From: Eledone cirrhosa
Lineage: Eukaryota
NCBI GenBank assembly: GCA_964016885.1
Contig: OZ024741.1
Location: forward strand, 238,390,001 to 238,454,000
Direction: 5' to 3'
DNA length: 64,000 bases
The notes beneath the pieces were generated by a model. The model worked only from the letters and a program-made list of their open reading frames with translations. It was not told where the DNA came from and made no database searches. Position numbers and translations under genes: made by a program. Below, piece by piece: positions 720 to 64,000 of this stretch. Positions within the stretch are counted from its first letter, which is position 1. The number at the start of each line of letters is the position of its first letter.

Positions 720-867
720 CTGATGTCTGGTGTGTAATATCTCCTTCACTCCATCCACGTTTATGCTCTCTCTGAGATGGTAATGTATCACTGAGGTTGT
801 TTGATGTCACAGTACTGCTGGTGTCATCTTGCTCACACGATCCATCTGAAAACTGCTTATTATAGAT
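720..867 (-). CDS. PCDH: Protocadherin g1, cytoplasmic exon (IYNKQFSDGSCEQ...HQTS)
   Basis: cag|ATC acceptor in phase 0 matches the large-exon donor; TCAG|gtaatt donor. Length is 148 nt in all seven paralogs. Confidence 0.88.
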
Positions 868-2082
868 CTGCCAGGAAATAACATGCACATTTGAGAGTTT
901 AGAAGACACAACATTATGTATTTATAAGAAAACTAGATTGACAATCATTCAACTGTAAAATTGAAGAGATTTATCTTTAATACATTCAAATGCATATATA
1001 TGTTTCTTTATTTCATTTTCTGATCTATAGTTGTTAAATTTACATTATTTACAGAGATCTCATCTCCATACTCTATACTTCAACTTCTCTCCATACTCAT
1101 ATCTATACTTCAACCCATATACATACTTTTATAGTTCAACTAATCTCAATATTCTATACTTCAAATCATCTCTATATACTTCATAGATGACTTGATCAAA
1201 CACTTTTGAATTAACTTAGATACATGAGGTTGTATTTCTTTGAGATGCGATATCTTATATTGAGGTAAATTTCTTGTACTTAGAATTAATTTCAGTGTTT
1301 TTTGTGATATTTGTAGTGTTGCTTAGATTGATCAAATACACTTAGTCAACATTAATGAAGCGGCCAAAAATGAAGGACTTTCCCACCATGGCTGTCCTGT
1401 CATCTTCATATATTAAGGTGGGGGTGTGTTTGACTACATTATTTAAAAAAAGACACATAAATATATCTGATCTGGTAAAATTAAGTATATAACAAAATCT
1501 ACAGTTAGGTTTATTTTAAAGAAAATTTTATTCAATGATAGAAAGATCTTCCAGAAGTTTGACATCTATAGGATTAGACACTTAAAATGGGACATTACAG
1601 GAGAATATAAAGAAAAGAAGAAAGATGTCTTAACAAAAATAGTGCACATAAAAATAATGATTTTCAAGGTAAATCAAGCTCAAACTGACCACACTAGCTA
1701 CAATTACATAAATCAATTACAGTAAATCAATAACTAGTAAATATAATAAACCTGATGTTAGTATGGATGTTATTCAACTTCTGAGATAATGATCATGCTT
1801 ATAATATTTCAGATTTGAGTATACAGAATACTTCTAAGGGGATGATGTATATAAAATCGGAAAATGTTCATTTTCTTTTTTAACTTTACTGATTTTGAAT
1901 TACTATTTTTTAAAGATCTATGAAATTTTGTTAAGATAAGACAGGAATACATCTAAAATAAATTTTACTGATATTATTAAAACATATCAAAACAATATAA
2001 AGAAGGTTAGAAATACATTTATATAGTTAAATGTAAAAAGAGTAAAAGTAATTAATGAGAAATGGCTATATTATATGGGTAC

Positions 2083-4479
2083 CTGTGGAACTGGTGGAAG
2101 TCGTCTGGGTGTTGTTGAGAATTTCCAGTCATTGGTTAACTGTTCCATCTCTGGATAATATGGACTTTTAGGGTTTATTGACTGAAGATTTCTAGCAAAT
2201 ATATCGTCTGCATTTCTGGTTATTGCAACAGGATTGTTGGTGTGATACAATATTTGTCTCATCTCAGTCGGAGATAGGAATTTTGGATTATCTATTGTTG
2301 TAGGTGAGTTATTGGTGTGATTAATACATCTGAAAACACACAGTGTTATTGACACTACAATAGCCACAGATATTATTACAGCTGCTGCTACAATGATAAT
2401 TACCCAAGTCATATTGAGGTTGTTACCAGTCTGTAAGTGGACAGCATTCAACATTGGAGATGTATCATTACTAACAAACAATGTTAGTATGATAACAGTT
2501 GTTGCTGATTGAACTGGAGTACCACCGTCTTTTACTATAAACTGTAGGTCATATGTTCCTGCATCATTTTGGTAAACTACCCGAGAGAAAGATAAGACAC
2601 CAGTATGGGAGTTGACTGTAAACAGGTTTTTATCATTAGATCTCAGTATTCCATATGTGAGGAAAGCATTGTTTCCAGTGTCTTTGTCAGAGGCTTTCAG
2701 AATTGTGATGTCTTTCTTACTGTGTGGATCATAGTGGACATCTAGATTGTAAGGGTCATTAATAGGAAAGGTTAAATAGGGAGCATTATCATTTTTATCT
2801 AGAATCTCAATAACAATATTGGCAGTGTTATTCAGAGAAGGTGTTCCATTATCTTTGACTAAAATCTGGAATTTATAGATGTCTTTTACTTCCCGATCTA
2901 TTGATTGTGATGTAGAAATAAATCCATATTTTGTAAGTTGGAAAGGAATGTTATCATTGTTGTTATCATTGATGATAGAATATGTAAGTTGACCTCCATC
3001 TTCAAGATCAGGGTCTGTAGCATTGATGAAGCCAATAGGGAAGTCAACTTTCTGGTTTTCATAGGTGAGGAATTGGAATGTATCTTTGGTAAAATGTGGC
3101 TGTACATCATTGACATCAGTTACTTTGACAGAGAATTGTTTCTTAGTCTTTAACTCAGGTGATCCCATGTCATGACATAAAATAGATACAACATAGTGAT
3201 CTATAGTTTCTCTATCAAGAGGTTCTTTCACCAATATTTTATATTCTTTAGAACCCATATTAGAAAGTTGAAACATTTTATGGTGAATATTACATTTAAT
3301 TTGTCCATTAGGACCACTATCAGTATCAATCACTATAACATAAGCTATGAAACCACCAATTTTACTTGCTTCTGAAATAGCTGTAGATGTCTCAGTTAAA
3401 GGTGACACAAAATCTATATTTATATTTGGAGCATTATTTTGATTGCTTATTACATTAATAATTAACATTGCTGTAGAACGTAATGAAGGAATCCCATCAT
3501 CCCTAACTTCAATGTCCAGTTTGTAATTTTGCTGTATATTTTTGTAAAAATTCTCATTTAAAAATAGCTCACCATTTGGTTTGAGTTTAAAGTTTCTTTC
3601 TGCATATGAACTTGTTCTTTGGTAAAAGTTATAAGTAACATTTCCATTTCGACCTGAATCTAAATCTGTAGCTGATATAACAAACACAGGAGAAGATATG
3701 TGATGTGTATCACTAATGGTGATATTGTATGTTTGTTGAGAAAACATAGGCCTGTTATCATTGACATCTATAACAGATATTTCTATGCTTAGAAAACCTT
3801 CTTTTGGAGGTGAACCTCCATCTTTAGCCACTAACTGTAACATATAAGTGTCTTTTAGTTCTCTGTCTAACAATCCTTGTAGAGTAATTTTAAGTATATT
3901 CATTCCATCAGATTCTTTAAATATGGATAGTGAGAATTTTTTACTTTTATCTTTAAGTTTATATGTGATGTTTGAATTGAGAACACCAATGTCTTTATCA
4001 ACAGCATTTGGTATTGATTTTGTTGATCCTTTAGCATCTGTTTCATCAAATTCTAATTTTATTTCTTTTCTATGATAGTTGGGTTGGTGGTCATTAATAT
4101 CATCTATAACTATTTTAATCTTTAATATCTTTAGGAACGTTTCTTCTTTCCTCACAGCTACTTTAACAATCCTGAAACATTCTTTCTTGTAAATACAAAG
4201 TATTTCAGCATCCAGTGTCTGTGTCGTATATAGCTTTCCTGTGTTGGTGACATTGAATAAGTGAGAACCACTTGACACTGTCCTTTGTAGTTGTGTAAAT
4301 GTAATGAGAGTGTGTTGTTTATGTGTGAGAAAGTGTGTTAAGTTAGAATCAACAGCAATGTCTCCGATATAGGTGTGAGGTCTGTCTTCTTCATTGACAT
4401 GGTATGTAATGTCTATCGACACAACAAAATATATCAGTCCATAGAAAAGATAAAACTCTAGGGTGTTGATTATAATCAT
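2083..4479 (-). CDS. PCDH: Protocadherin g1, large exon (signal peptide, 6 EC repeats, TM, proximal tail)
   Basis: 802-aa ORF with DRE, DxNDxxP and AxDGG motifs, EC1 Cys pair LCIYKKEC and TM WVIIIVAAAVIISVAIVV. Acceptor at 4521-4522; donor CAG|gtaccc at 2082. Confidence 0.96.
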
Positions 4480-4934
4480 TGTTGTAATTCATTATTATTC
4501 ACAAATATATATTTCCAAATCTAAAAAAGAAAAAAAAGATATATATATTTGTGAATACACATCTTTAAAACTAAAACAGAAAAGTAAACAAGATTGTGTA
4601 ATTATACCATTGTATATGAAAGATTTATTTATGTGAAATCCATATATTCTAAGTATCTAAAATTTATCCATAGCAAATATAGTTAATATATAAATAGTAT
4701 ACACCTCATATATGCTCTTGGGCCGTTTACATAAAAACGAGTTACTGGTTATTGCATCAGAGACTATATCATATCATCAGCAAAACATTTTTTAAAAAGC
4801 ACTACAAATATGTTTAAGTTATCTCATTATTTCACACCTATGTGGTTTTAGCTAATATGTTATGAGTTTGCATCTCATAGGAGCTTCCTTGTGTGTTTAA
4901 ATAATAGTGGTCCCAGTCATGCTATAAAAAGACC

Positions 4935-5090
4935 TTCCAGGACTGGATGCAAGTCTCTTGAGGGTTAACTTCCAGCTGCTGCTGGTATTAATTTATTTTT
5001 CAGCTGAGTGGACTGGAGCAACAAGAAATGAAGCAGCTGTCTAGGAATCAAAACTTCTGTTCATGGGTCCAACTCCCTCACCACTAGTCT
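4935..5090 (-). mobile_element. Degenerate CORE-like SINE fragment (family B)
   Basis: cagctgagtggactggagcaacaagaaatgaag resembles the fuller copy at 24330-24600. Confidence 0.5.
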
Positions 5091-5794: not shown

Positions 5795-5890
5795 TGTTTC
5801 TACTTTAGGCACAAGGCCAGCAAAACTCAGTACATTACTGGTACTTTATTTTATCGACCCCGTAAGGATGAAAGGCAAAGTTAACCTCGA
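5795..5890 (-). mobile_element. 5'-truncated SINE family A with 11-bp TSD
   Basis: TSD aaagttttaat at 5784-5794 and 5891-5901. Confidence 0.85.

Positions 5891-11386: not shown

Positions 11387-11440
<54 letters not shown>
11387..11440. repeat. (TA)n microsatellite
   Basis: Seen directly. Confidence 0.97.
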
Positions 11441-11444
<4 letters not shown>

Positions 11445-11828
11445 AGAAATTTCGTATTTCTGAAGAAATACGATTTTAGAAAGCCGTAGCCATGCAAACA
11501 CCATGGGCAAACGCCCTCTGGTGGTATCCAGCAGAAGCAAGAGGGGACAACTGTCTATGCATTTCAGGCTTGACTGGCCTTCGTCAGGACGGTCCTTCCC
11601 ACCGCTTGCTACTGCTGGACTTGAAAGCAGTCGAGAATATATAGTTTTCTCGTCTGTGTAAATGAGGTGATTAATCTCATTTGCATATGAAGCTGCATAA
11701 GTTGGCTCAACTTATAATAGAAAAGAAATAAGATTTCGCTTCAAGCATAGCTTTATACAATATGTATAGAAATTTCGTATTTCTAAAGAAATACGGTTTT
11801 AGGAAGCCGTAGCTATGCAAACACCGGG
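11440..11828 (-). mobile_element. Penelope-like pseudo-LTR / retrozyme-like unit (~324-bp monomer plus partial second copy)
   Basis: ~62-bp direct repeat at 11440-11502 and 11763-11825; contains a hammerhead core; sits between TA tracts. Confidence 0.65.
11550..11593 (-). ncRNA. Minimal type I hammerhead ribozyme
   Basis: Minus strand: ACCGTC-CTGACGA-AGGC-cagtcaa-GCCT-GAA-ATGCAT-A-GACAGT. Has CUGANGA and GAAA cores, 4-bp stem II, palindromic stem III and 5 of 6 bp in stem I. Confidence 0.75.
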
Positions 11829-11829: not shown

Positions 11830-11840
11830 ATATACATATA

Positions 11841-11892
<52 letters not shown>

Positions 11893-11915
11893 CATATATA
11901 TACATATACATATAC

Positions 11916-11950
<35 letters not shown>

Positions 11951-12023
11951 GATATATACATATATACATATATACATATATATACATATACATATATACA
12001 TATATATACATATATATATACAC

Positions 12024-12076
<53 letters not shown>

Positions 12077-12209
12077 TATATATATATACACACATATATA
12101 TATATATATACACATATATATATATATACACATATATATATATATATACACATATATATATATATATACACATATATATATATATACACATATATATATA
12201 TATATACAC

Positions 12210-12240
<31 letters not shown>

Positions 12241-12683
12241 TATATATATACACATATATATATATACATAAATATACATATACACATATACATATACACA
12301 TATACATATACACATATATATATATATATATACATATATATACATATATATATATATACCTATATATATATATACCTATATATATATATACCTATATATA
12401 TATATATACCTATATATATATATACCTATATATATATATATACCTATATATATATATATATACCTATATATATATATACACCTATATATATATATATATA
12501 TACCTATATATATATATACACCTATATATATATACATATATATATATACATATATATATATACATATATATATATACATATATATATATATACATATATA
12601 TATATACACATATATATATATACATATATATACATATATATACATATATATACATATATATACATATATATACATATATATAC

Positions 12684-12747
<64 letters not shown>

Positions 12748-12841
12748 TTGTTTTTATATATATATACATATACATATATATATATACATATATATATATA
12801 CATATATATATATACATATATATATATACATATATATATAC

Positions 12842-12872
<31 letters not shown>

Positions 12873-12895
12873 CATATATATATATACATATATGC

Positions 12896-12942
<47 letters not shown>

Positions 12943-13013
12943 CATATATATATACATATATATATATACATATATACATATACATATATACATATACATA
13001 TATATATATATAC

Positions 13014-13044
<31 letters not shown>

Positions 13045-13139
13045 CATATATATATACATACATATATATATATATACATATATATATACATACATATATA
13101 TACATATATATATATACATACATATATACATATATATAT
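11830..13139. repeat. ~1.3-kb compound (TA)n/(TACA)/(TACC) microsatellite
   Basis: Seen directly; source of the YI-repeat ORFs. Confidence 0.98.
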
Positions 13140-15732
13140 GCTCTTTTACCTGTTCCAGCCATCTCACTGAGACCATGCTGGGGCTCCGCCCTTGTTGCTA
13201 CACATTTTATCTCCAGCCTGTATTGGTTGGCTACTTGTGCAAGAGGGAGTTCATTGCTGCTGCTCTTAGGTTTCCCTTGTGCCTTGCTGTGGGCTCATCT
13301 GGGATCCTGGATAGCAAGGTGTCGAGATGTTTCTTGAAGACATCCACATCCACACGATGCAGATCTCTCAGATCCCTCGGCAGCTTGTTGAAGAGTTGAG
13401 GGTTCTTGAACCCCAGGCTATTGCAATATTTGGTCTTATGTGGAAGACGGGACCTTTGGCACCACACAGTGACATCCTGTTCAATGGTTGGTCCAGCTCC
13501 CAATGCCAAAGTTTTGGCGCTAGTCCCTCCAGGATTTTCCCCATGTAGATCACGGCGTATCTCTCCCGTCTTTGTTCCAAGGAGTAGAGGTTCAGTTCTT
13601 TTATCCTCTCCCAGTAGTTTATCTCCTACATCGTCGCAATCCTCTTGGTGTAGCTTCGCTGGATTGCCTCAAGCTCCGTGGTTAGTTTGACACTATGGGG
13701 TGACAACAACTGGGAGCAATAGTCCAGGCGGCTTAGGACAAATGCGTCTATAGTGTCAACATGGTGTCTCGGTTTCTTGTCCGGAAAGTCCTCAAGATCC
13801 AGCCAGCGAGTCATCTGCACATTGTCGCCACTTTCATGATGTGTGAGGAAAAAGATGCATCGTCGCTCATGTCTATACCCAGGTCTCGTACCGATTTCAA
13901 CACGGGAATATCGGTTCCTCCTAGTCTGGCATAACTGTGTTGTACTGTATTTGTGTTTGCAGGTTTGTATTGTAGAGCTTGGAATTTGCCAGCATTAAAC
14001 TACCTCTTGCACCAGTAGCCAACCAATACAGGCTGGAAATAAAATGTGTAGCAACAAGGGTGAAGCCCCAACATGGCCTCAACCAGATGGCTGGAACAGG
14101 TAAAAGAGTATATATATATATGTATATATATATGTATGTATATATATATGTATATATTAAAATATGGCATCCATATCTTGTTGTAAAAAGGCAGCGTCAG
14201 CCGGGTTTTTGATTGCCTGTTCTACCTTAGTGTCATCAGCATAGCTAGCGAGAGATGTTGTATGTACTACAGTGGGCATGTCTGAGAGAGCCACCAAAAA
14301 TAGTAGTGGTCCCAGGACTGTGCCTTGGGGCACCACACTTGTTATTGATGTTTCCTTTGAGAGGGCCCTGTTTGCTGCAACTGTCTGACTTCTGTCCTTT
14401 AAGAAGTCATGCAGCCACTCACCTACTTTTCCAGTTAAGCTGAGTCTGTGTAGTTTGTGACATATCATTCCATGGTCGACCTTGTCAAAGGCCTTTGCAA
14501 AGTCAAGATATATCATGTCCACATGTGCGCTGTCTAGCAGTTGTTTCAGTACTCAGTCGTAGTGATGTAGCAGCTGTGTAAGGCAGCTTCTTCCTGGGCG
14601 AAAGCCATGCTGCGTGCTAGTCAGCGGTCATTTTCCTCAAGGAAAGTGATCAGTTTCTTTCTGATGATTCGCTCCATGACCTTACTGATATGTAATGTCA
14701 GGGAGACTGGCCTATAGTTTTTGGCCTCCGCTCTGCTACCTCCTTTATGGATAGGGCATATTGTGCCTTCTTTCAGCTCCCCGGGTAGTCTACCACTAGC
14801 CAAGGAGCTTCTGAAGAGCGTCATCAGTGGAGTTGCTAAGGCCCACTTACATGTTTTTAAGAGGACTGCTGGGAAACCATCAGGTCCAGCAGCTGAATCT
14901 GTTCTAATTTCATCTATGGCGTACACCACATCCTCCTCCATTATGTCTATGTGGTTGATGGTCACCATTTCTTCATGGAGTGTTGTGCCATCAAAGAAAT
15001 CCTCTGGCTTTGTTATTTGCATGTGCCTCAGTGGACATGTGAACACACTTTTGTACTGTTCGTTCAGTATTTCACTTATTTCTTGGGGATTCTCAGTTAA
15101 TGAACCGTCTTTATGGAAGAGTGGCACAATGTACCGAGGCAGTCTCTTTTGCAAATTTAAAGAAGGCTTTAGGGTATTGTTTTAATATTTTCTATGGCCT
15201 GCTTTCTTTCTTTGCCCTGTCATTTTCATGGGAAAGTTTGAGTGCAATCTCGATGTCAAGTAGTGCACGTTTCAAATAGGATTCATTCTTGTATTTGTTT
15301 TCTTGTTCTGCATTCAACTGGTTTGAGAGGTTAGTTCTACGTCTCATAAGGATTTTCCTATCTCTGGGAATAAGATTTTTGTGTCTGTTGGCCTTTTTCT
15401 CTGGGACAAACTTTTGGAATATAGTTTGTATCGTTGTCATGAAGTGTTGAAAATGTGTGTTGGTGTCTTTTGTGGTGATATTGTCGCTCCATATTTGCTT
15501 CCGGATTTCTCTCTTGATCTTTTTCCAGTTAGCCTTGTAGAAGTTAAGGCAGGATAAGGTCCTGGTGCTTCTTGATGGTTGTGTCTCTGTTGGTTTTCTC
15601 GGACCACACATCATTAGTTCTACTAAATTATGATCCGAGAAAATTGTTGGTGTCACCTTTACATCGTGGATGAGCACTGCATTGTTTGAACACACTTTTG
15701 TACTGTTCGTTCAGTATTTCACTTATCTCTTG
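13140..15732 (-). mobile_element. 5'-truncated CR1/L2-group LINE (end of endonuclease, RT, 3' end), frameshifted
   Basis: ORF pieces read FSDHNLV, NYRPVSLT, YLDFAKAFDKVDH, VPQGTVLGPLLF, YADDTK, SRLDYC and LFNKLP; 3' end abuts (TA)n. Confidence 0.93.
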
Positions 15733-16049
15733 CAAGTATTGAAAAGCAGAAGTGAGATGATGATTGGAATCATACATCTTGCATAAAAATTATCATTATA
15801 TATATATATATATATAATGTAAACAATCATTATATAATGAAAAAAAGAACATAACAAATATCTGTTGCAAGTTATGTTTCCCATTTAATTATTATTAAGA
15901 ATATAGAAACTTGATTTGCATACATTTGTGTAAACTGCAAGTAACTAAATCTTATATTAAAAATCTAAAAATAGTAGATCAAATTTTTTTAATTCATAAG
16001 ATATTTTTACTGTGATTTACAGTTATGTCAATATTATATTACAGAGAGA

Positions 16050-16730
16050 TCATTATCATCGTTTAACCTTCCACGCTAGTATGGGTTTGGACGGGAATTG
16101 TCCCACTTGAGGCAAGATTGGTTGTCTTGCTCATATAGGACTGTCTGGCAGGTTTTCTATGGCTGGATGCCCTTTCTGATGCCAACCACGTTTGCGGTGA
16201 GGGCTGGGAGGTTTTTGCCGTGTTACCTATACGGCCACATTACAGCATGGACTGTGTTATTTGTCGTGACACCTACATGACCTCATTTATTTAGGACTGG
16301 ATGTTGTGATACCAACATAACTTTACAGAGAAAGGGGTGGTGTTGGTGGGGGGTTTGGGGTAGTGGGATGGGGGTGTATATTTGATTAAGAGGTGCCTAC
16401 TGACTGTAGGTTTCACTTTGTACTTAGGCAAGGCGGGTTTTCTGTATTACTGTGTAGCGCCAAAGATCTCGGTCCAGTGACATTGTGTTAGAGAGGTGTA
16501 AGTGTGTAAGGTCTGAATTTATCAAATCATCCCAGGTTTTTCTGGGTCTGCCTACTCCGTAACTTCCATCAATTTTGATTGCCCTACACTTTTTTATACA
16601 GCTGTCGTCTTTCATGCGCATCACATGACCATACCAACGCAATCTTCTCTCGAATAAACAGCATCTGATCCCTCTTATACCTAATTTCTCACTTAGTTCA
16701 TTTATGCTTTGCTGTTCACGTATGCAGTTA
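16050..16730 (-). mobile_element. RTE LINE 3' fragment with 3'UTR and (ATG)n tail
   Basis: RRLRWYGHVMRM...GRPRKTW...KTRLA*. The same 3'UTR occurs at 31362, 41285 and 50138. Confidence 0.88.
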
Positions 16731-17411: not shown

Positions 17412-17558
17412 CTGCATGGTTTAATCCTTTGTCTGTGTCTCTTACAGAAGACATTTATTCTGACGTAGTGTTCCAGTGTAACTGCTGCTGTAGTAGTGTG
17501 ACAATGGCAGTATCTTGATGATGTAGATTTGTGAGTCATAGTGGGAGCCAACTACACT
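17412..17558 (-). promoter_or_regulatory. Conserved putative promoter / non-coding first exon of g1
   Basis: Near-identical block once per unit; perfect AG|GTAAGT donor; no upstream polypyrimidine acceptor; contains TGACTCA and a TGACGT half-site. Confidence 0.65.
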
Positions 17559-18382: not shown

Positions 18383-18471
18383 CTATGTTTTATATACTGG
18401 TTCTAAATATGTATCTTGCTCATGTTCACCTTTTGGTGTTGGTGGTATATTTGGTGTGTAGTTACTGTATT
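18383..18471 (-). CDS. PCDH: Protocadherin g2 terminal coding exon (EYSNYTPNIPPTPKGEHEQDTYLEPVYKT*)
   Basis: ttttccag|AA TAC acceptor completes the phase-1 codon; 89 nt to the stop in every copy. Confidence 0.8.
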
Positions 18472-18743: not shown

Positions 18744-19843
18744 AGAGAAAACTATATAGGTACTAAGTTGGTTGACAAGGTTATGAAGGTCACTGAAAGA
18801 GTCTTAGCTCAGCTGATTAGAGACCGTGTTAATATAGATGAGATGCAGTTTGGATTTGTCCCAAGTAAGAGTACTACAGATGCCCTCATCCTTGTAAGAC
18901 AACTGCAGGAGAAGTACCTAGATAGAGTAAGCCCCTCTATTTGGCTTTTGTCGACCTTGAGGAAACTTTTGACAGAGTCCCCCATTCTATTATCTGGTGG
19001 GATCTTAGGAAACAAGGAGTTGACAAATGGCTCATGGGGGCAGTTCAAGCAATGTATAGAAGAACAGCCAGTAAGGTTAGAATTAACAATGACTATAGCA
19101 AATAATTTAGCATGCAGGTTGGTGTCTATCAGGGCTTTGTTCTTAGCCCTCTTCTGTTTATCATCGTTCTGCAGGCAATAACAGAGGAGTTTAAGACCGG
19201 CTGCCCATGGGAACTTTGTATGCTGATGACCTAACCGTTATAGCCGAATCTATAGCTGAACTAGAGATGAAATTCCAAACCTGGAAGCAAGGCCTAGAAT
19301 CAAAAGGTCTTAAAATCAATCCGGCAAAGACTAAAGTCCTAGTAAGTAGTAGGGATAACAGGGCACAGGGAAATGGTTCTGCTCAGTGTGCAGAAAAGGA
19401 GTATGTAGAAATTCCATTCTATGTACCAAATGCAAGTAATGCGTACACAAAAGATGTAGTGGGATCTCAGGCAAGCTAATAAATGTTGTAGGTTTTACTT
19501 GTGGCAGGTGCACAGGGGCAGTAAGTAGCAAGAACCCTCAGGATACAACCACCTTCAAATGCTCAGATGGTTCGGTTGAAGTGATAGATAGTTTCTGTTT
19601 CCTGGGTGACTAAATCCACTGTAAAGTGGACGTGTACAAGGCACGGCAAAAAGCACCCAGCACACACTGTCAATGTGGTTGGCATTAGGAATGGCATCCA
19701 GCCATAGAAAACAAGCCAGAAACTCTCCTATATGAGCGAGACATGGCCACCTGACCCAACTTGCCTCTAATAGGGACAAACCCGTCTAACTCATGATAGC
19801 GGAGAAGATAGACGTTAATCAACGATGATGGTGATGATGATGA
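18744..19843 (+). mobile_element. RTE LINE fragment in g2 intron 3
   Basis: QFGFVP, STTDA and YADDL motifs; (GAT)n tail ends ~18 bp from the exon donor; absent at the equivalent g3 site. Confidence 0.88.
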
Positions 19844-19861
19844 ATTAATATCCACTATTAC

Positions 19862-20009
19862 CTGATGTTTGATGTGTAATATCTCCTTCACTCCAACCAC
19901 GTTTATGTTCTCTTTGAGATGGTAATGTATCACTTAGGTTGTTTGATGTCACAATACTGCTGTTGTCACCTTGCTCACAAGATGCATCTGAAATCTGCTT
20001 ATTATAGAT
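19862..20009 (-). CDS. PCDH: Protocadherin g2 cytoplasmic exon
   Basis: 148 nt, canonical AG/GT boundaries, open frame. Confidence 0.88.
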
Positions 20010-25601: not shown

Positions 25602-25748
25602 CTATATTGTTCAATCCTTTGTTTGTGTCTCTTACAGAAGACATTTATTCTGACGTAGTGTTCCGTTGTAACTGCTGCTGTAGTAGTGTGACAATGGCAG
25701 TATCTTGATGATGTAGATTTGTGAGTCATAGTGGGAGTCAACTACACT
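25602..25748 (-). promoter_or_regulatory. Conserved putative promoter / first exon of g2
   Basis: Same block and GTAAGT donor as 17412-17558. Confidence 0.68.
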
Positions 25749-26579: not shown

Positions 26580-26668
26580 CTATTTTTTATATATTGGTTC
26601 TAGATATGTATCTTGCTCATGTTCATGCTTTGGTGTTGGTGGTATGTTTGGTGTGTAGTTACTGTATT
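26580..26668 (-). CDS. PCDH: Protocadherin g3 terminal coding exon (EYSNYTPNIPPTPKHEHEQDTYLEPIYKK*)
   Basis: 89 nt, conserved acceptor and stop. Confidence 0.8.
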
Positions 26669-26948: not shown

Positions 26949-27096
26949 CTGATGTCTGATGTGTAATATCTCCTTCACACCAACCACGTTTATGTTCCCT
27001 TTGAGATGGTAATGTATCACTTAAGTTGTTTGATGTCACAATACTGCTGTTGTCACCTTGTTCACAAGACCCATCTGAAATCTGCTTATTATAGAT
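26949..27096 (-). CDS. PCDH: Protocadherin g3 cytoplasmic exon
   Basis: 148 nt, canonical boundaries. Confidence 0.88.
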
Positions 27097-35209: not shown

Positions 35210-35356
35210 CTATAATGTTTAATCCTTTGTTTGTGTCTCTTACAGAAGACATTTATTCTGACGTAGTGTTCCAGTGTAACTGCTGCTGTAGTAGTGTGAC
35301 AATGGCAGTATCTTGATGATGTAGATTTGTGAGTCATAGTGGGAGCCAACTACACT
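35210..35356 (-). promoter_or_regulatory. Conserved putative promoter / first exon of g3
   Basis: Same block, GTAAGT donor. Confidence 0.68.
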
Positions 35357-36181
35357 TTGGATGATCTTATTTATCTGTACATATTGTATTTATTAAATTT
35401 AATTTATTTTACCCAAAGTTTAAAATATTAAATAATGAATTTTGCAATAAATATTTCTGATTTATACTAAACTAAATTAAAATATTTATAAGTGATATTC
35501 ATTCCTTGTACACGGGATGTTTACAGCACACTAATGTGTACACAAATTCACTGAGTGTTATATGTAAAACATTATTTTCTAACCTCAGTGATAATTTCAT
35601 AAGACATATTGCAGAGCATTAATCTATAAAATATTTACTAACGTTATAAATTATATATATTTTTTTACAATATCTTCTGTTACTTTATTATTTTTTCATA
35701 ATATAAATAATAATATGAAATATCAATGTGTATTTAAAATGTTAATATTATTATCATCACCATAGTAGAAATGGTAAATAGTTGGAATAGTGTTCTTCAT
35801 ATAATCTTCGGATGGCAGATTATATGGGGCTAAATGTCCTTTTCTTCCATCTAGTATTGATACTAATGATATATGAACAAGAATTCCATATTATACCCAT
35901 ATTTCTGAAGCTTTTTGCCCAATGTATGATAAAAATAAACCAATGAGGATATTTGGGAATACTCTAAAATCATGTCATTTAATTCTTTCTTTCTCAATGT
36001 GTAACAAACATATTTCCAAATACATATTCTTCGATATTACTTTGAATTAATAAGTTGTGTGTGCTAATTAATGGAATTTCATTTTAAAACAGAAGCAATG
36101 TTCTAATTTTATTGAAGTATTTATGTTAAAAATAAAATAATCTCCAAGCAGGATAATTACAGTTGTGTTAACTTGAGCTTA

Positions 36182-36270
36182 CTATTTTTTATATATTGGT
36201 TCTAAATATGTATCTTGTTGATGTTCACCTTTTGGTGTTGGTGGGATATTTGGTGTGTAGTTACTGTATT
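36182..36270 (-). CDS. PCDH: Protocadherin g4 terminal coding exon
   Basis: EYSNYTPNIPPTPKGEHQQDTYLEPIYKK*. Confidence 0.8.
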
Positions 36271-36839: not shown

Positions 36840-36987
36840 CTGATGTTTGATGTGTAATATCTCCTTCACTCAAACCCCGTTTATGTTCTCTTTGAGATGG
36901 TAATGTATCACTTAAGTTGTTTGATGTCACAATACTGCTGCTATCACCTTGCTCACAAGACCCATCTGAAATCTGCATATTGTATAT
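36840..36987 (-). CDS. PCDH: Protocadherin g4 cytoplasmic exon
   Basis: 148 nt; donor variant G|gtagta. Confidence 0.86.
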
Positions 36988-37528
36988 CTGTTATGAAACA
37001 ACAAAGATTTCAATGCACATTTGAAAGATGAAAGTACATACTATAACTATATATTTTTACATCTTTGCAGAAAAATAATAATTCTTTTTACTGTATCAGA
37101 ATGTTAAGGAGATATAAGGAAAGTATTTCTAATTTCAACTATCAGCTTTGAAAGTAGTAAATATCATATGACTGGTGTTGTATACTTAATCAGAACATCT
37201 GTTATTGTTTTGAGAATCTCTGATATTTAATATATCAAATTGGTTTATGAGATATATAGATCTCTGAAATCAGGATATGAATATATTTGAAATAAATTTT
37301 ACTGTTATTATAATTTTTGTTATCAGAATTGTCAATATTTACTATAACAAATAGTTTCTTATATATAATTCCTTCTTAAAATAAGATATGAATACACTGA
37401 GAATAAATTTTACTGTTATTATTCAAAGTCGTAGGAAAATATGTGAAGAAAATTAAATATGATTGTATATAATTAAATATAAATGCATTAAAAATAATAT
37501 TTAAGCGGTGGATTTACTGCATAGTTAC

Positions 37529-39922
37529 CTGTGGAACAGGTGGAAGTCTTCTGGGTGTTGTTGAGAATTTCCATTCATTAGTTAACTGCTCCATCTCTGG
37601 ATAATATGGACTTTTAGGGTTTATTGACTGAAGATTTCTAGCAAATATATCGTCTGCATTTCTGGTTATTGCAACAGGATTGTTAGTGTGATACAGTATT
37701 TGTCTCATCTCAGTCGGAGATAGGAATTTTGGATTATCTATTGTTGTAGGTGAGTTATTGGTGTGATTTATACATCTGAAAACACACAGTGTTATTGACA
37801 CTACAATAGCCACAGATATTATTACAGCTGCTGCTACAATGATAATTACCCAAGTCATATTGAGATTGTTACCAGTCTGTAAGTGGACAGCATTCAACAT
37901 TGGAGATGTATCATTACTAACAAACAGTGTTAGTATGATAGCAGTTGTTGCTGATTGAACTGGAGTGCCACCATCTTTCACTATAAACTGTAGGTCATAT
38001 GTTCCTGCATCATTTTGGTAAACTGTCCGAGAGAAAGATAAGACACCAGTATGAGAGTTGACTGTAAACAGGTTTTTATCATTAGATCTCAGTATTCCAT
38101 ATGTGAGGAAAGCATTGTTTCCAGTGTCTTTGTCAGAGGCTTTCAGAATTGTGATGTCTTTCTTACTGTGTGGTTGGTAGTGGACATCTAGATTGTAAGG
38201 GTCATTAATAGGAAAGGTAAAATAGGGAGCATTATCATTTTTATCTAGAATCTCAATAACAATATTGGCAGTGTTATTCAGAGAAGGTGTTCCATTATCT
38301 TTGACTAAAATTTGGAAATTATAGATGTCTTTTACTTCCCGATCTATTGACTGTGATGTAGAAATAAATCCATATTTTGTAAGTTGGAAAGGAATGTTAT
38401 CATTGTTGTTATCATTGATGATAGAATATGTAAGTTGACCTCCATCTTCAAGATCAGGGTCTGTAGCATTGATGAAGCCAATAGGGAAGTCAACCTTCTG
38501 GTTTTCATAGGTGAGGAATTGGAATGTATCTTTGGTAAAATGTGGTTGTACATCATTAACATCAGTTACTTTGACAGAGAATTGTTTCTTAGTCTTTAAC
38601 TGAGGTGATCCCATGTCATGACATACAATAGATACAACATAGTGATCTATAGTTTCCCTATCAAGAGGTTCTTTCACCAATATTTTATATTCTTTAGAAC
38701 CCATATTAGAAAGTTGAAACATTTTATGTTGAATATTACATTTAATTTGTCCATTAGGTCCACTATCAGTGTCAATAACCATAACATAAGCTATAAAACT
38801 CCCAATTTTACTTGCTTCTGAAATAGCTGTAGAAGTCTCTGTTAAAGGAGACACAAAATCTATATTTATAGTTGGAGCATTATTTTGGTTGCTAATTACA
38901 TTAATAATTAACATTACCATAGAACTTAATGAAGGAATTCCCCCATCTTTGGCTTCAATGTACAGTTGATATTTACTTTCTTTATTTCTAAAGAAATCTT
39001 CATTGGTGAAAATTTCTCCAGATTTGGAATTTAATTTGAAATTTTTTCTGGCATATTTATTTGTATTTCTGTGTAAATAGTAAGTAATATTTCCATTTTG
39101 ACCAGAATCTAAATCTGTAGCTGATAAAACAAATACAGGAGAAGATATATGATGTGTATCACTAATGGTTATATTATATAGTCTTTTAGTAAATATAGGT
39201 CTGTTATCATTTACATCAATAACAGATATTTCTATGTTTAGAAAGCCTTCTTTTTGTGGTGAACCTCCATCTTTAGCCACTAACTCTAACATGTAAGTGT
39301 CTTTTAATTCCCTGTCTAACACTCCTTGTAGAGTAATTTTAAGTATATTTATTCCATCAGTTTCTTTAAATATGGATAGTGAGAATTTCTTACTTTTATC
39401 ATTAATTTTATATGTGATGTTAGAATTGAGACCACTAATGTCTTTATCAACAGCATTTGGTATTGATTTTGTGGAGCCTTTTGCTTCAGTTTCATAAAAT
39501 ATTATTTCCAGTTGATTTTTTGGAAACTCTGGCTGATGGTCATTAATATCTTCTATGAATATTTTAATCTTTAATATCTTCATAAATGTTTCTGATTTTC
39601 TTACTGCTACTTTAACAATTCTGGAACATTTCTTGTTATATGTACACAGAGACTCAGCATCCAGTGTCTGTGTAGTGTATAGTTTTCCTGTGTTAGTGAC
39701 ATTGAATAAGTTAGAACCACTTGACACCGTCCTTTGTAGTTGTGTAAATGTAATGAGAGTGTGTTGTTGATGTGTAAGAGAGTGTGTTAAGTTAGAATCA
39801 ACAGCAATGTCTCCTATATAGGTGTGAGGACTGTCTTCTTCATTGACATGGTAAGTAATGTCTATGGACACAACAGAATATATTAATCCAAAGAGAATCG
39901 GTAGAGTGCTGATTATAACCAT
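37529..39922 (-). CDS. PCDH: Protocadherin g4 large exon
   Basis: 802-aa ORF; acceptor at 39962-39963; donor CAG|gtaact. Confidence 0.96.
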
Positions 39923-41284
39923 TGTTGTAATTCATTATTTATTGTTGTATAATCCATATATCTAGAAAAAATAAGGAAACACATTGATAAATAGAAATGT
40001 TGTTGTGAAATACATACATTTAAAAAAACTAAACTAAAAAATAATATTTTAAATCTGGATTTAGTTATTAGAAAGATTGAACTTTGTTTTTACTGTTTAG
40101 GCAGGAAGTGAAAGGCCATGCTGCTGACACATTCATGACCTCTTTGATTTGCAAGAGGGACGCCAAAATTTCTACTCATTTTGGTGACCTGGCTTGAATG
40201 CTTGCAATAGAATTGACTAAATGCATTCAAAGAGCAGGCTGGTTGAGGGAATATTGGTGAAAGATTAACACAACCAACGAAATTGTCTACAGTTGTATTA
40301 AAAATTGGAACACAACTAAAGATTTCTATTAATAGTTGTATAAATGACATTACAAATGCATAAATAACCTTATAAATTTAAGAAAACTCGGGTATATATG
40401 TATAAATGCGTAAATAACATTATAGTTATAGTCTACAAACGTTGTTGAGTGTTTTAGCATCTTTAATGTTCTAAACAAACTTTAGAATGTCCTTACATAA
40501 TTAAAAATTTAAAACATCTCACCTATTTTGAGAATGTCTATCGATGTAACTGTTCCCCATTTCTAAACATACAAAATAAGTGGAAGTATATTTCTTGTTG
40601 GACGATATATTCCTGTAAAAATTATTCAGAAGTAACCACTAGCTCTACAGAATTGCATTTTTGCAATCTTCCATCTTGAGACAATAGAGTTATCTGCCCC
40701 TCTCAATGTTAAATATTTGATACTACAATTTCTTTGTGGGTGGTCAATATATTGAGAAGCTTCTATGTAAGGTGGAATGACACATTTGTCCAATTCTGTG
40801 TTTTATTGAAGTATTTAATTTATCTTCTAACTAATGCACCTCCACAATATGCTATCATTACATGAAATTACTAATTTTATAATAATATGGTGGGCACCGA
40901 AAAGTTTCAGGTGAGAATTAGCTTTGTAAAACTCTATAGAAATGAATTCTGATCTAAAATGATAAATTATCTAACCGATAAATATATATCTACGATCATG
41001 GTGCAAAGTTGTTGAATAGCATTGATCAGCATTTGTCATGAAAACATATAAAACAGAGATAATCATGCCCAAATATGTGAAACATCAGTCTGTTCTGGTA
41101 TAATGTTATAATATATATACATTATAATATCTCTTTGAGGAACAAAGTGAAATTCAGAACATGTTTCTTCTAGATTGTTATCTAGTCTGACCTTTTCTGC
41201 TTGAACCCTGTAATATTGTGTTCATAATGATAATGGAGGAAAGTCAGTTACTGGAAAATAGATTTCTTTATAATTTACAATTGA

Positions 41285-41578
41285 TGTGAAGTTATGTTGG
41301 TACAACAACATCCAGTCTGAAACAAATGAGGTCGTGTAGGTGTCACGACAAAAAAAAAAACACACAGTCCACTCTGTAATGTGGCCGTGTAGGTAACACA
41401 GTAAAAATCTCCCAGTTCACTCTGTAAACACGGTTGGTTTTAGGAAGGGCATCCAGCCGTAGAAAACCCGCCAGACAGTCCTATACGAGCAGGACAACCA
41501 ATCTTGCCCCAGGTGGGAAAACTCCCGTCCAAACCCATGCAAGCGTGGAAGATGGACGTTAAACGATGATGATGATGA
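41285..41578 (+). mobile_element. RTE 3'UTR fragment in g4 intron 1 (shared with g5)
   Basis: Ends gttaaacgatgatgatgatga; empty site acaattgatatcgaaacagagattg in g3 and g6. Confidence 0.88.
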
Positions 41579-44063: not shown

Positions 44064-44210
44064 CTATATTGTTTAATCCTTTGTTTGTGTCTCTTACAGA
44101 AGACATTTATTCTGACGTAGTGTTCCAGTGTAACTGCTGCTGTAGTAGTGTGACAATGGCAGTATCTTGATGATGTAGTTTTGTGAGTCATAGTGGGAGC
44201 CAACTACACT
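44064..44210 (-). promoter_or_regulatory. Conserved putative promoter / first exon of g4
   Basis: Same block, GTAAGT donor. Confidence 0.68.
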
Positions 44211-45039: not shown

Positions 45040-45128
45040 CTATTTTTTATATATTGGTTCTAAATATGTATCTTGTTCATGTTCACCTTTTGGTGTTGGT
45101 GGGATATTTGGTGTGTAGTTACTGTATT
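45040..45128 (-). CDS. PCDH: Protocadherin g5 terminal coding exon
   Basis: 89 nt, conserved. Confidence 0.8.
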
Positions 45129-45690: not shown

Positions 45691-45838
45691 CTGATGTTTG
45701 ATGTGTAATATCTCCTTCACTCAAACCCCGTTTATGTTCTCTTTGAGATGGTAATGTATCACTTAAGTTGTTTGATGTCACAATACTGCTGCTATCACCT
45801 TGCTCACAAGACCCATCTGAAATCTGCTTATTGTATAT
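45691..45838 (-). CDS. PCDH: Protocadherin g5 cytoplasmic exon
   Basis: 148 nt, canonical boundaries. Confidence 0.88.
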
Positions 45839-48773: not shown

Positions 48774-50137
48774 TGTTGTAATTCATTATTTATTGTTGTA
48801 TAATCCATATATCTAGAAAAAATAAGGAAACACATTGATAAATAGAAATGTTGTTGTGAAATACATACATTTAAAAAAACTAAACTAAACAAAAATATTT
48901 TAAATCTGGATTTAGTTATTAGAAAGATTGAACTTTGTTTTTACTGTTTAGCCAGGAAGTGAAAGGCCATGCTGCTGGCACATTCAGGACCTCTTTGATC
49001 TGCAGGAGGGACGCCAAAATTTCTACTCATTTTGGTGACCTGGCTTGAATGCTTGCAATAGAGTTGACTAAATGCATTCAAAGAGCAGGCTGGTTGAGGG
49101 AATATTGGTAAAAGATTAACACAACCAACCAAGTTGTGTACAGCTGTATTAAAAATCAGAACAGAACTAAAGATTTCTATTAACAGTTGTATAAATGACA
49201 TTACAAATGCATAAATAACCTTATAAATTTAAGAAAACTCGGGTATATATGTATAAATGCGTAAATAACATTATAGTTATAGTCTACAAATGTTTTAGCA
49301 TCTTTAATGTTCTAAACAAACTTTAGAATGTCCATACATAATTAAAAAGTTAAAACAACATAGATTGAACATCTCACCTATTTTGAGAATATCTATCGAT
49401 GTAACTGTTCCCCATTTCTAAACATACAAAATAAGTGGAAGTATATTTCTTGTTGGACGATATATTCCTGTAAAAATTATTCAGAAGTAACCATTAGCTC
49501 TACAGAATTGCATTTTTGCTATCTTCCATCTTGAGACAATAGAGTTATCTGCCCCTCCCAATGTTAAATATTTGATACTACAATTTCTTTGTGGGTGGTC
49601 AATATATTGAGAAGCTTCTATGTAAGGTGGAATGACACATTTGTCCAATTCTGTATTTTATTGAAGTATTTAATTTATCTTCTAACTAATGCACCTCCAC
49701 AATATGCTATCATTACATGAAATTACTAATTTTATAATAATATGGTGGGCACCGAAAAGTTTCAGGTGAAAATTAGCTTTGTAAAACTCTATAGAAATAA
49801 ATTCTGGTTTAAAATTATAAATTATCTAACCGATAAATATATATCTACGATCATGGTGCTAAGTTGTTGAATAGAGTTGATCAGCGTTGGTCATAAAAAC
49901 ATAAAACAGAGATAATCATGCCCAAATATGTGAAACATCAGTCTGTTCTGGTATAATGTTATATTATATATACATTATAATATCTCTTTGAGGAACAAAG
50001 TGAAATTCAGAACATGTTTCTTCTAGATTGTTATCTAGTTTGACCTTTTCTGCTTGAACCCTGTAATATTGTGTTCATAATGATAGTGGAGGAAAGTCAG
50101 TTACTGGAAAATAGATTTCTTTATAATTTACAATTGA

Positions 50138-50429
50138 TGTGAAGTTATGTTGGTACAACAACATCCAGTCTGAAACAAATAAGGTCGTGTAGGTGTCACA
50201 ACAAAAAAAAAACACACAGTCCACTCTGTAATGTGGCCGTGTAGGTGACACGGTAAAAATATCCCAGTTCACACTGTAAACGCGGTTGGTTTTAGGAAGG
50301 GCATCCAGCCGTAGAAAACCTGCCAGACAGTCCTATACGAGCAGGACAACCAATCTTGCCTCAGGTGGGACAACTCCCGTCCAAACCCATGCAAGCGTGG
50401 AAGATGGACGTTAAACGATGATGATGATG
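50138..50429 (+). mobile_element. RTE 3'UTR fragment in g5 intron 1 (same insertion as in g4)
   Basis: Junctions identical to 41285-41578. Confidence 0.88.
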
Positions 50430-51064
50430 AGATTGAATGTAACATGTCTGTTAATTATTGTGGTTATTTTCTTTTATATGTGCAGGTTTTTGTTATTTTG
50501 TGAATAATATTGTTCTTGCTTGATATTTATTTTTCTGATTGTTTGTAATGGATAGTTGATGAAACATATTCCCCATATTTTTAGGTTAAATGTTTCTGTA
50601 TGTTGTGTTTTTTAATAAAATTTAGTAATATGAAGTGTGTTATTTATAACATTTATTGTTTTAGTCATGTTTGTGAGAGATTGAGTTCCTAGGTAGGACT
50701 GACATAGTTCTTGATGGATGTTTATAATTGATTGGAAACTGTATGTTTATTTAAATATAATCTTGACTGAATATTGGTCAGCTGTGTGAATATTGTGTAT
50801 TTAATGATCATTACAATTAGGTTTTCATGTTCACTATATCTACCTAAGCTTAGTGGAATTTCACAAATATCAGAAAAATAAAAATTCTTAAGCTTTACAA
50901 CATATAGTTTTGTGTTTACAAATCAAATTTGTCTGGGCACTGTACTAAGTAGCAGTAATGCAACAGTACTAACTGATTATTTAATATCTCTTGTGATTCA
51001 TAATTATTATAGAAAAGTGATCAATATATATATATATATATACACTCTTCTTTTTTGCTCTTGC

Positions 51065-52903: not shown

Positions 52904-53050
52904 CTATAATGTTTAATCCTTTGTTTGTGTCTCTTACAGAAGACATTTATTCTGACGTAGTGTTCCAGTGTAACTGCTGCTGTAGTAGTGTGACAATGGC
53001 AGTATCTTGATGATGTAGATTTGTGAGTCATAGTGGGAGCCAACTACACT
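52904..53050 (-). promoter_or_regulatory. Conserved putative promoter / first exon of g5
   Basis: Same block, GTAAGT donor. Confidence 0.68.
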
Positions 53051-53881: not shown

Positions 53882-53970
53882 CTATTTTTTATATATTGGT
53901 TCTAAATATGTATCTTGTTCATGTTCACCTTTTGGTGTTGGTGGGATATTTGGTGTGTAGTTACTGTATT
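53882..53970 (-). CDS. PCDH: Protocadherin g6 terminal coding exon
   Basis: 89 nt, intact. Confidence 0.72.
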
Positions 53971-54539: not shown

Positions 54540-54687
54540 CTGATGTTTGATGTGTAATATCTCCTTCACTCAAACCCCGTTTATGTTCTCTTTGAGATGG
54601 TAATGTATCACTTAAGTTGTTTGATGTCACAATACTGCTGCTATCACCTTGCTCACAAGACCCATCTGAAATCTGCTTATTGTATAT
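54540..54687 (-). CDS. PCDH: Protocadherin g6 cytoplasmic exon
   Basis: 148 nt, intact. Confidence 0.78.
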
Positions 54688-61412: not shown

Positions 61413-61559
61413 CTATATTGTTTAATCCTTTGTTTGTGTCTCTTACAGAAGACATTTATTCTGACGTAGTGTTCCAGTGTAACTGCTGCTGTAGTAGTGT
61501 GACAATGGCAGTATCTTGATGATGTAGATTTGTGAGTCATAGTGGGAGCCAACTACACT
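61413..61559 (-). promoter_or_regulatory. Conserved putative promoter / first exon of g6
   Basis: Same block, GTAAGT donor. Confidence 0.68.
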
Positions 61560-62354: not shown

Positions 62355-62443
62355 CTATTTTTTATATATTGGTTCTAAATATGTATCTTGTTCATGTTCA
62401 CCTTTTGGTGTTGGTGGGATATTTGGTGTGTAGTTACTGTATT
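62355..62443 (-). CDS. PCDH: Protocadherin g7 terminal coding exon
   Basis: 89 nt, conserved. Confidence 0.8.
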
Positions 62444-63027
62444 CTGGAAAATAGATAAATACATTATAAATAGTATTAGAAGGGAAAGTTATCTTTATAT
62501 GTATGGAAAAATATTCTTTTCTAAATGAAGCAACTATTATCATATTCATTTTTATGATAATAATGAAAATTATTGTGTACAGTTCTCAGGTGCACTACAA
62601 CTAATCAAAGGTGCATGTATACTACATAGAATAATGTACAAATGCCAGGAAAGTGAATAGTGTTTGAGTCATGATACATACACATGCATGCATGTGTATG
62701 GAGGTGGAATATCAGGTGTGGTGTTGGTGAATTTCAGGAAGCATGGGAGATTTGAATAATGCAGTGTCCCAACAGCTAACACCTGATACAGGTAATTTGT
62801 TCTGTGCATTATATATATATATATATGGGCATTTTGTTTCTTCTTTCAATTTTATATGACTTTTACCTGATTATATTAATAAACATCTTTTTAAATATTT
62901 CATAAAATATTATATAAATATTGTATAAAATACATTAATTACTCTTATATTAGTTAAATATGGTTTAATGATATAATATGTTACAATTGTACCAGTGAAT
63001 TAATAAAAAATGAATATCCACTATTAC

Positions 63028-63175
63028 CTGATGTTTGATGTGTAATATCTCCTTCACTCAAACCCTGTTTATGTTCTCTTTGAGATGGTAATGTATCACT
63101 TAAGTTGTTTGATGTCACAATACTGCTGCTATCACCTTGCTCACAAGACCCATCTGAAATCTGCTTATTGTATAT
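63028..63175 (-). CDS. PCDH: Protocadherin g7 cytoplasmic exon
   Basis: 148 nt, canonical boundaries. Confidence 0.88.
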
Positions 63176-63716
63176 CTGTTATGAAACAACAAAGATTTCA
63201 ATGCACATTTGAAAGATGAAAGTACATACTATAACTATATATTTTTACATCTTTGCAGAAAAATAATAATTCTTTTTACTGTATCAGAATGTTAAGGAGA
63301 ATTGAGCAAAGTATTTTTAATTTCAACTATCAGCTTTGAAAATAGTAAATATCATATGACTGGTGTTGTATACCTAATCAGAACATCTGTTATTGTTTTG
63401 AGAATCTCTGATATTTAATATATCAAATTGGTTTATGAGATATATAGATCTCTGAAATCAGGATATGAATATATTTGAAATAAATTTTACTGTTATTATA
63501 ATTTTTGTTATCAGAATTGTCAATATTTACTATAACAAATAGTTTCTTATATATAATTCCTTCTTAAAATCAGATATGAATACACTGAGAATAAATTTTA
63601 CTGTTATTATTCAAAGTCGTAGGAAAATATATGAAGAAAATTAAATATGATTGTATATAATTAAATGTAAATACATGAAAAATAATATTTAAGAGGTGGA
63701 TTTACTGCATAGTTAC

Positions 63717-64000
63717 CTGTGGAACAGGTGGAAGTCTTCTGGGTGTTGTTGAGAATTTCCATTCATTAGTTAACTGCTCCATCTCTGGATAATATGGACT
63801 TTTAGGGTTTATTGACTGAAGATTTCTAGCAAATATATCGTCTGCATTTCTGGTTATTGCAACAGGATTGTTAGTGTGATACAGTATTTGTCTCATCTCA
63901 GTCGGAGATAGGAATTTTGGATTATCTATTGTTGTAGGTGAGTTATTGGTGTGATTAATACATCTGAAAACACACAGTGTTATTGACACTACAATAGCCA
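63717..64000 (-). CDS. PCDH: Protocadherin g7 large exon, 3' end (continues beyond window)
   Basis: TM end and proximal tail identical in protein sequence to g4 and g6. Confidence 0.93.

Follow-up and report, generated by a model that had tools for sequence, protein, structure and literature searches.

A 64,000-nt stretch of the Eledone cirrhosa genome (GCA_964016885.1, contig OZ024741.1, positions 238,390,001-238,454,000; hereafter the window, by whose own positions all features are located) is part of an octopodid protocadherin array in head-to-tail arrangement, of a kind already described. All genes lie on the minus strand and are named as units U1-U7 in rising coordinate order. A unit opens with a short upstream sequence (element A), followed across a long leader intron by a single big exon of ~2.4 kb and then by two private tail exons; the big exon holds a signal peptide, six extracellular cadherin (EC) repeats, a transmembrane segment (TM), and a juxtamembrane part. 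We read the window, with a probability of roughly 0.75, as a sub-array of whole-gene duplicates in which EC1-3 are diverse and everything after mid-EC4 in the big exon is near-identical, likely through repeated gene conversion and unequal crossover on this tract. The tract is marked by sharp edges, uniform synonymous sites, and grouping by lineage across octopods.

The uniform module begins in mid-EC4, reaches the 3' end of the big exon, and lies inside that exon, not in the private tail exons. With EC boundaries that we set from linker motifs, mean divergence among the six big exons, taken per 150-nt segment, is 4-16% in EC1-3 and 1-3.5% after aa 400. A change point falls at aa 391 (377-393), with a polymorphic-site density of 0.253 before it and 0.059 after. 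The proportion of synonymous sites that differ (pS) over aa 401-780 is 0.044-0.086 in all 15 pairs, whatever the age of the pair, against 0.109-0.380 in EC1-3. At fourfold sites, the contrast between EC1-3 and the tract reaches p<0.05 in seven of the eight pairs tested (the exception is U4-U5, p 0.11). Even for U1 and U2, whose flanks are ~20% diverged, the tract is uniform at both synonymous and fourfold sites, and identity within it is 97-99% among the window copies. The corresponding nonsynonymous proportion (pN) is lowest from EC5 through the variable cytoplasmic domain (VCD). Contigs of four coded sequencing runs (X8, X1, X3, and X5) were mapped on one unit, U4, and over the tract their unassembled contigs collapse to one piece (X1 record 1, aa 465-726). 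In U4 the tract lies as follows:

37529..38758, minus strand: homogenised tract, starting at about aa 391 in EC4 and ending with the exon, with a counterpart in every unit
about 38536-37763, minus strand: EC5-TM core of the tract

Comparison with other octopods rests on proteins only, as representatives of 90%-identity clusters whose species label is one source name per cluster. In a search with the U4 protein, all of the at least 120 matches listed are Octopus or Argonauta protocadherins, and the top relatives, named 'protocadherin beta-15-like' (O. vulgaris, 86%; O. bimaculoides, 83% over part; Argonauta hians, 80%), have the same two-exon tail. In trees of 26-27 rows, EC1-3 sequences interleave the species, with U1, an old lineage, grouping with Argonauta P0010 (97/88), whereas the segment from the second part of EC4 to the VCD (EC4b-VCD) falls into separate window (99/98), Octopus (98/93), and Argonauta (100/100) clades. 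The tail tree, built with FastTree, interleaves the species. An approximately unbiased (AU) test rejects Argonauta monophyly for EC1-3 (p-AU 0.006). Two Argonauta subfamilies are 53-55% apart in EC2/3 and 67% in their tails, but 3.0% apart in EC5 and 1.4% in EC6; their shared tract is aa 461-720, covering EC5 through the TM in full. Family distances, computed on 110 of 125 proteins after 15 partial ones were dropped, follow the same pattern in three of the four families with at least four members: EC5/6 differ by 0.4-3.3% within a lineage versus 5.3-13.5% between lineages, and EC2/3 are about equally distant within and between (27-44%). Orthologues a, b, and c of O. vulgaris and O. bimaculoides differ at 7-15 of 218 positions in EC2-3 and 1-4 of 75 in tails, and paralogues at 42-74 and 19-32, respectively; over EC5-TM, full-length pairs differ at 7-12 of 258 positions (~4%) for orthologues and paralogues alike. 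In these comparisons EC5-TM groups by lineage, and EC2-3 and the tails keep older cross-species lineages.

Six-frame translation gives five intact minus-strand open reading frames (ORFs) of 805-831 codons and one that is split in two. The window contains six whole ectodomain exons, one of them frameshifted, and the 3' end only of a seventh unit; U2-U5 alone are complete and intact. U6 has a 2-nt insertion near 56390 (minus strand) in a short TA run with three substitutions nearby, its frame stops at codon 418, and it may be a pseudogene or a consensus error. U7 contributes 94 codons of TM and tail at 63717-64000, where the window edge cuts its big exon before the EC repeats can be counted. Pfam, applied to two of the six big exons, gives five PF00028 stretches and a Cadherin_2 match in EC1. 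The five in-frame big exons align at 89-95% identity, and self-alignment resolves units of 8.5-9.6 kb at 92-96% identity from ~28 kb onward (U3-U7), with the older units below. Each big exon begins at an acceptor (4520, 23140, 30929, 39961, 48812, and 57672) placed 39-42 nt upstream of its ATG. The exons, all on the minus strand, are:

720..867, minus strand: U1 tail exon C2 (U1 C3 is outside the window)
2083..4520, minus strand: U1 big exon, with signal peptide, EC1-6, TM, juxtamembrane part, and phase-0 donor; ATG at 4479
18383..18471, minus strand: U2 tail exon C3, with stop
19862..20009, minus strand: U2 tail exon C2
20699..23140, minus strand: U2 big exon; ATG at 23101
26580..26668, minus strand: U3 tail exon C3, with stop
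26949..27096, minus strand: U3 tail exon C2
28491..30929, minus strand: U3 big exon; ATG at 30890
36182..36270, minus strand: U4 tail exon C3, with stop
36840..36987, minus strand: U4 tail exon C2, both flanking joints found in contigs
37529..39961, minus strand: U4 big exon; ATG at 39922
45040..45128, minus strand: U5 tail exon C3, with stop
45691..45838, minus strand: U5 tail exon C2
46380..48812, minus strand: U5 big exon; ATG at 48773
53882..53970, minus strand: U6 tail exon C3, with stop
54540..54687, minus strand: U6 tail exon C2
55229..57672, minus strand: U6 big exon, with the 2-nt insertion near 56390; ATG at 57630
62355..62443, minus strand: U7 tail exon C3, with stop
63028..63175, minus strand: U7 tail exon C2
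63717..64000, minus strand: U7 big exon, 3' end

All six units with a big-exon start also have an out-of-frame ATG 13 nt upstream of the main ATG (4492, 23114, 30903, 39935, 48786, and 57643), which opens an overlapping ORF of 31-33 codons and may damp translation; its counterpart is annotated in frame in P0015/P0016.

Tail exons are spliced in cis to their own big exon. The private 148-nt exon C2, with a phase-1 donor, is present in all seven units, and the private 89-nt stop exon C3 in six (that of U1 lies beyond the window). All introns tested are GT-AG (intron 1 in 7/7 units, intron 2 in 6/6); intron 1 is in phase 0, by its donors in seven units, and intron 2 in phase 1. Among the 15 of 177 contig joints that were listed, 36987/37529 (intron 1) occurs in three of the four runs (X8, X1, and X3) and 36270/36840 (intron 2) in two (X8 and X3). 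X8 is unlabelled and judged from its splice joints alone, and the RNA status of X1 and X3 is a guess; X5, with neither U4 joint among those listed and all 30 bins covered, looks like DNA. The ends of a further joint, 36936/37529, are non-canonical, and we take it for a paralogue whose C2 starts elsewhere. Annotated relatives, P0002, P0003, and P0016 among them, match the spliced tails. The initial annotation had described seven six-EC protocadherins with single-exon ectodomains. The head-to-tail order and the single-exon ectodomain stand; the count becomes six whole ectodomain exons, that of U6 frameshifted, and a partial seventh. Its view that each gene has its own cytoplasmic exons in place of shared constant exons is borne out by C2 and C3 and by the contig joints at introns 1 and 2 of U4. 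A common phase for all donors and acceptors was also claimed, which is true at homologous sites but not between introns 1 and 2; any tandem duplication yields such sharing. An independent coleoid expansion in tandem arrays, which it gave as established, is supported in the form of whole-gene units and was already published (PMC9068888, cited, as are the other papers here, from excerpts). In intron 1, a 110-bp tandem duplication (copies ~73% alike) at 37202-37422, with homologues in U5-U7, marks the U4-U7 tail type.

Element A, which the initial annotation did not include, is a 147-nt sequence ending in a strong splice donor in all six copies. It lies 795-831 nt past the stop codon of the upstream gene and 2.5-12.9 kb ahead of the next big exon:

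17412..17558, minus strand: element A of U1, donor at 17412
25602..25748, minus strand: element A of U2
35210..35356, minus strand: element A of U3
44064..44210, minus strand: element A of U4, with contig cover in all four mapped runs, three of which carry splice joints
52904..53050, minus strand: element A of U5
61413..61559, minus strand: element A of U6

A 21-mer from the element occurs six times, with 0 occurrences expected by chance. Its 128-nt core has 0-4 mismatches among the six copies, whereas the 200-nt flanks of old pairs differ by 16-24% (p 8e-11 to 4e-6), and blocks of 71 and 41 nt are invariant among the three old lineages. Contigs of two runs from organism A carry a 3-nt insertion in the element. 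Leader-intron cover next to it is low or zero in X1, X3, and X8 and was not counted as evidence. Its translation is present in 4 of 24 database gene models examined, which belong to O. sinensis and O. bimaculoides, and is read there in three different frames: P0121 of O. sinensis (18/29, E 6e-9), where the match runs directly into the N-terminus of the next gene and a second copy is also present; P0129 (19/23, E 8e-9) and P0123 (18/28, E 2e-8) of O. bimaculoides; and P0138 of O. sinensis, from a second subfamily (E 3e-4). By these matches, element A is a non-coding sequence that keeps its place across species and subfamilies and varies less within the E. cirrhosa genome than between genomes. 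The big exon starts at an acceptor ahead of its ATG and therefore needs an upstream exon, for which element A is the conserved candidate; it is likely a shared non-coding leader exon with a promoter.

A coding role for element A was rejected, since its longest ORF is out of the main-ORF frame in 6/6 units and the frames differ in other species. The CTCF core, allowing up to two mismatches, was also rejected as its basis (0/6 elements; 5 matches in the window versus 6.0 expected). Rfam gives no match to the element, its predicted fold is unremarkable (z 0.51), and no exact copy turned up in metagenome contigs. All six copies contain AP-1-like, CRE-like, and Drosophila Motif-1-like words; the copies are not independent, so these words are leads only. 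A 20-nt block at ~35431-35450 (minus strand), 94 nt upstream of the element, is invariant with its homologous sites across the three old lineages and is a candidate promoter site. Database models P0121, P0125, P0129, and P0137 (1794-5758 aa) fuse neighbouring protocadherin genes of O. sinensis/O. bimaculoides; these fusions are probably annotation artefacts, which would lower gene counts.

The window suggests how such an array could be maintained. Crossovers inside the shared tract would duplicate units and join the EC1-4 of one gene to the tail of another, so that variable/constant modularity would be made in germ-line DNA and not by splicing. U3 resembles U4-U6 in its leader intron and big exon and diverges from them by 15-35% just past the donor, as expected for unequal crossover within the shared tract; U3 and U1 would be chimeras of such crossovers. 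In the U4-U7 run, tail, spacer, and leader would have been swept to near identity. Element A would be both the non-coding first exon and the promoter region of the gene that follows, and all copies would then start from almost the same leader.

Several results weigh against this explanation. The AU test does not reject window monophyly for EC1-3 (p-AU 0.093), the fourth family (7 members) shares EC5 only, and in the O. vulgaris-O. bimaculoides comparison EC5-TM does not separate the two species. Among the window copies, a PHI-like neighbour test on the 98 informative sites is not significant (p 0.35), Sawyer-type runs reach p<=0.001 in just 4 of 15 pairs and all lie inside EC1-3, and G+C at fourfold sites shows no clear rise in the tract (33/134 vs 21/114, p 0.28), unlike fugu. 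In no domain does pN reach pS, and positive selection on EC2-3 is thus not shown. As for element A, the joint from it to the big exon is not among the 15 of 177 joints listed, P0121, which supplies the join, is a fused gene model and in part an artefact, and each of the six units has four upstream ATGs in its predicted leader, which means that the true start may lie inside element A.

The private tail exons could themselves be the constant region, kept uniform by conversion, with big exons perhaps splicing to a neighbour's tail; this is the version of homogenisation that the initial annotation had proposed, and we consider it unlikely. It describes U4-U7, the four youngest units, well. In U4-U6 pairs, tails have 0 differences in 46-47 synonymous sites against an EC1-3 pS of 11-14% (p 0.01 and 0.002), and tail introns and spacers of U4-U7 differ by 1.3-5.5%. 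At the protein level, tails are 8% apart in the window versus 28% in Argonauta and 44% in O. vulgaris; homologous splice sites share a phase, and read-through transcripts between PCDH genes are mentioned in an excerpt of PMC9712504. The description fails for pairs with U1-U3, whose tails have 7-12 synonymous differences in 29-47 sites (pS 0.17-0.41), above the EC5 tract in four of the five pairs tested at p<0.05 (p 0.001, 3e-6, 0.015, 0.06, and 0.002). At fourfold sites alone the excess holds for U1 only, the U2, U3, and U4 tails differing at 0-1 of 23-24 sites, so that the within-window result rests on few, mostly twofold, sites. Tails also interleave species in the tree, and in Octopus orthologues they are gene-specific, each staying one-to-one with its EC1-3. 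Homogenisation by conversion as such is supported, and was already published (PMC9068888); its place is the big exon. A reading without regional conversion, in which recent whole-unit duplication is combined with strong purifying selection on EC5-TM, would account for the low pN in EC5-VCD, for the kilobases over which U3-U7 align at 92-96%, and for the non-significant PHI-like test. We judge it very unlikely, as synonymous and fourfold sites are uniform too, including in U1-U2 with their diverged flanks, as clades by lineage appear for EC4b-VCD and not for EC1-3, and as EC5-TM orthologues are no closer than paralogues.

It is highly improbable that mis-assembly of haplotypes, or collapse or expansion of a repeat, produced the units. 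In its favour, the U4-U7 spacers are 97-99% identical and a short run of TA holds the U6 frameshift, but the seven copies are co-oriented, with EC1-3 pS of 11-38%, unit-specific insertions, and local divergence of up to 15-30%, and orthologous arrays exist in the named octopods. Contig depths in X5 add a weak hint in the same direction, being 9 (with 56 differences), 31, 39-40, and 279 for sequences with 1, 3, 4, and many similar copies, respectively, in the window; these are single contigs, and X5 may be the source of the assembly. A more open alternative concerns element A, which might be a DNA-level regulatory element, or a read-through or terminal exon of the upstream gene. Its nearness to the upstream stop codon relative to the next big exon favours this, as do P0123 and P0138, which append the element to the upstream gene, and one X8 contig that spans its upstream side into the 3' flank of that gene. 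The donor conserved in 6/6 copies, the lack of a conserved acceptor (the U2 copy is without the AG present in the others), the need of big exons for an upstream exon, and P0121, which joins the element to the next gene, point the other way, and we consider the alternative rather unlikely.

Much of this architecture has precedents. In excerpts of the published work, cephalopods are reported not to splice multiple first exons to shared final exons and to diversify through full gene duplications (Albertin 2022, PMC9068888), lineage-specific subfamilies are taken to suggest homogenisation through gene conversion (PMC9068888), head-to-tail clusters are described in octopus (PMC6339937; PMC9795677), and the cephalopod and vertebrate expansions are stated to be of independent origin (PMC9068888, PMC4978886). 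The window resembles these coleoid and octopod sub-arrays in its head-to-tail multi-exon whole-gene duplicates, its lack of shared final exons, and the conversion suggested for it (PMC9068888; PMC9795677; PMC6339937). It differs in that homogenisation is described in those excerpts at gene level only, where no mention of an EC5-TM tract, DNA-level chimeras, or a shared leader was found, and in that Octopus arrays keep gene-specific tails whereas the E. cirrhosa run has one dominant tail type. The literature searched in full text yielded, within the parts available, no domain-resolved conversion or shared leader element for cephalopod protocadherins, and PMC13218726 contributed nothing further; Albertin 2015, Wang and Ragsdale 2017, Noonan 2004, and the fuller PMC9068888 supplements may describe such features.

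The closest parallel to the tract is in vertebrates. Excerpts report that fugu paralogues have variable exons whose 3' parts are homogenised up to a discrete edge in EC4 or EC5 (PMC1852091), and that in frog and mouse dS, the synonymous divergence, is lowest in EC5/6, with EC2-3 spared (PMC4978886). As in the fugu, zebrafish, and mammal genes (PMC1852091; PMC4978886), the window has a 2.4-kb exon with six EC repeats, a TM, and a short cytoplasmic part, a homogenised 3' part with an EC4/EC5 boundary, and spared EC2-3. Tract identity is >99% in fugu versus 97-99% here, and the window tails are private, not shared. Like Pcdh-alpha/gamma, whose promoters carry the CSE and CTCF (PMC7811963), the window is a tandem co-oriented array with a conserved sequence upstream of each member; unlike them, its genes have no constant exons, and the contig joints, which match introns 1 and 2 of one unit, show no variable-to-shared-constant splicing. 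Element A also differs from the CSE in being ~128 nt long, ending in a splice donor, lying kilobases upstream of the coding exon, and having 0/6 matches to the CTCF core. Vertebrate Pcdh-beta genes likewise have no shared constant exons and encode a full protein per member (PMC7811963), but each is one variable exon; the window genes have a pair of private tail exons as well, and probably a leader exon.

The U1 leader intron is 12.9 kb long, in part through a broken LINE-type (long interspersed nuclear element) retroelement at 13234-15710 (minus strand; RVT_1 at 14160-14552, E 2.7e-14) and an adjoining TA-rich 1.3-kb microsatellite at 11830-13139. The same intron has an exact match to the CTCF core at 11512-11524 (minus strand), such as one of 100 shuffles also had, in a ~390-bp stretch bounded by 66-bp direct repeats (11437-11502 and 11760-11825). 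A very high-copy short interspersed repeat is present in both orientations at 16049-16441, 19619-19845, 31369-31768, 41285-41578, and 50137-50430; its copies occupy unit-specific sites and are markers of duplication order.

Whole-gene cephalopod arrays, the absence of constant exons, and conversion are already in print; the EC2-3-diverse, EC5-6-converted pattern and the 128-nt element A are possibly new. In vertebrate clustered protocadherins, cis dimers form via EC5-6 and trans specificity is set via EC1-4, according to excerpts of PMC7811963. By analogy, we infer that the octopod tract may serve the same cis function, in which case the specificity of trans-homophilic binding would be set by EC1-4, and with EC5-6 in common any two isoforms would be able to pair in cis. 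A bolder proposal is that octopods independently rebuilt the logic of the vertebrate protocadherin code, with an EC5-TM hub of conversion and crossover that would preserve a shared module for cis pairing, germ-line reshuffling of diverse EC1-4 heads and tails in place of splicing, a CTCF-free, near-invariant leader and promoter that would put all copies on an equal regulatory footing, and stochastic choice among them by single neurons; it is tentative, and we regard it as doubtful. Published single-cell data, in the excerpt available, put the number of PCDH at ~21 in a neuron and 13 in a non-neuronal cell; some are ubiquitous, others enriched in or marking cell types (Styfhals 2022, PMC9712504). 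These results are at least as compatible with cell-type coding as with a stochastic code.

Over their tail exons and 3' flanks, U4-U7 share 95-99% identity, so that 3'-end single-cell counts would not separate such paralogues, and the converted tract would bias full-length trees or duplication dates. The anatomy of the window makes the question of a cephalopod neuronal-identity code testable: since EC2-3 are spared and EC5-6 converted, just as in vertebrates, it predicts the sites of specificity and of cis pairing, and element A offers a single candidate control sequence common to the array.

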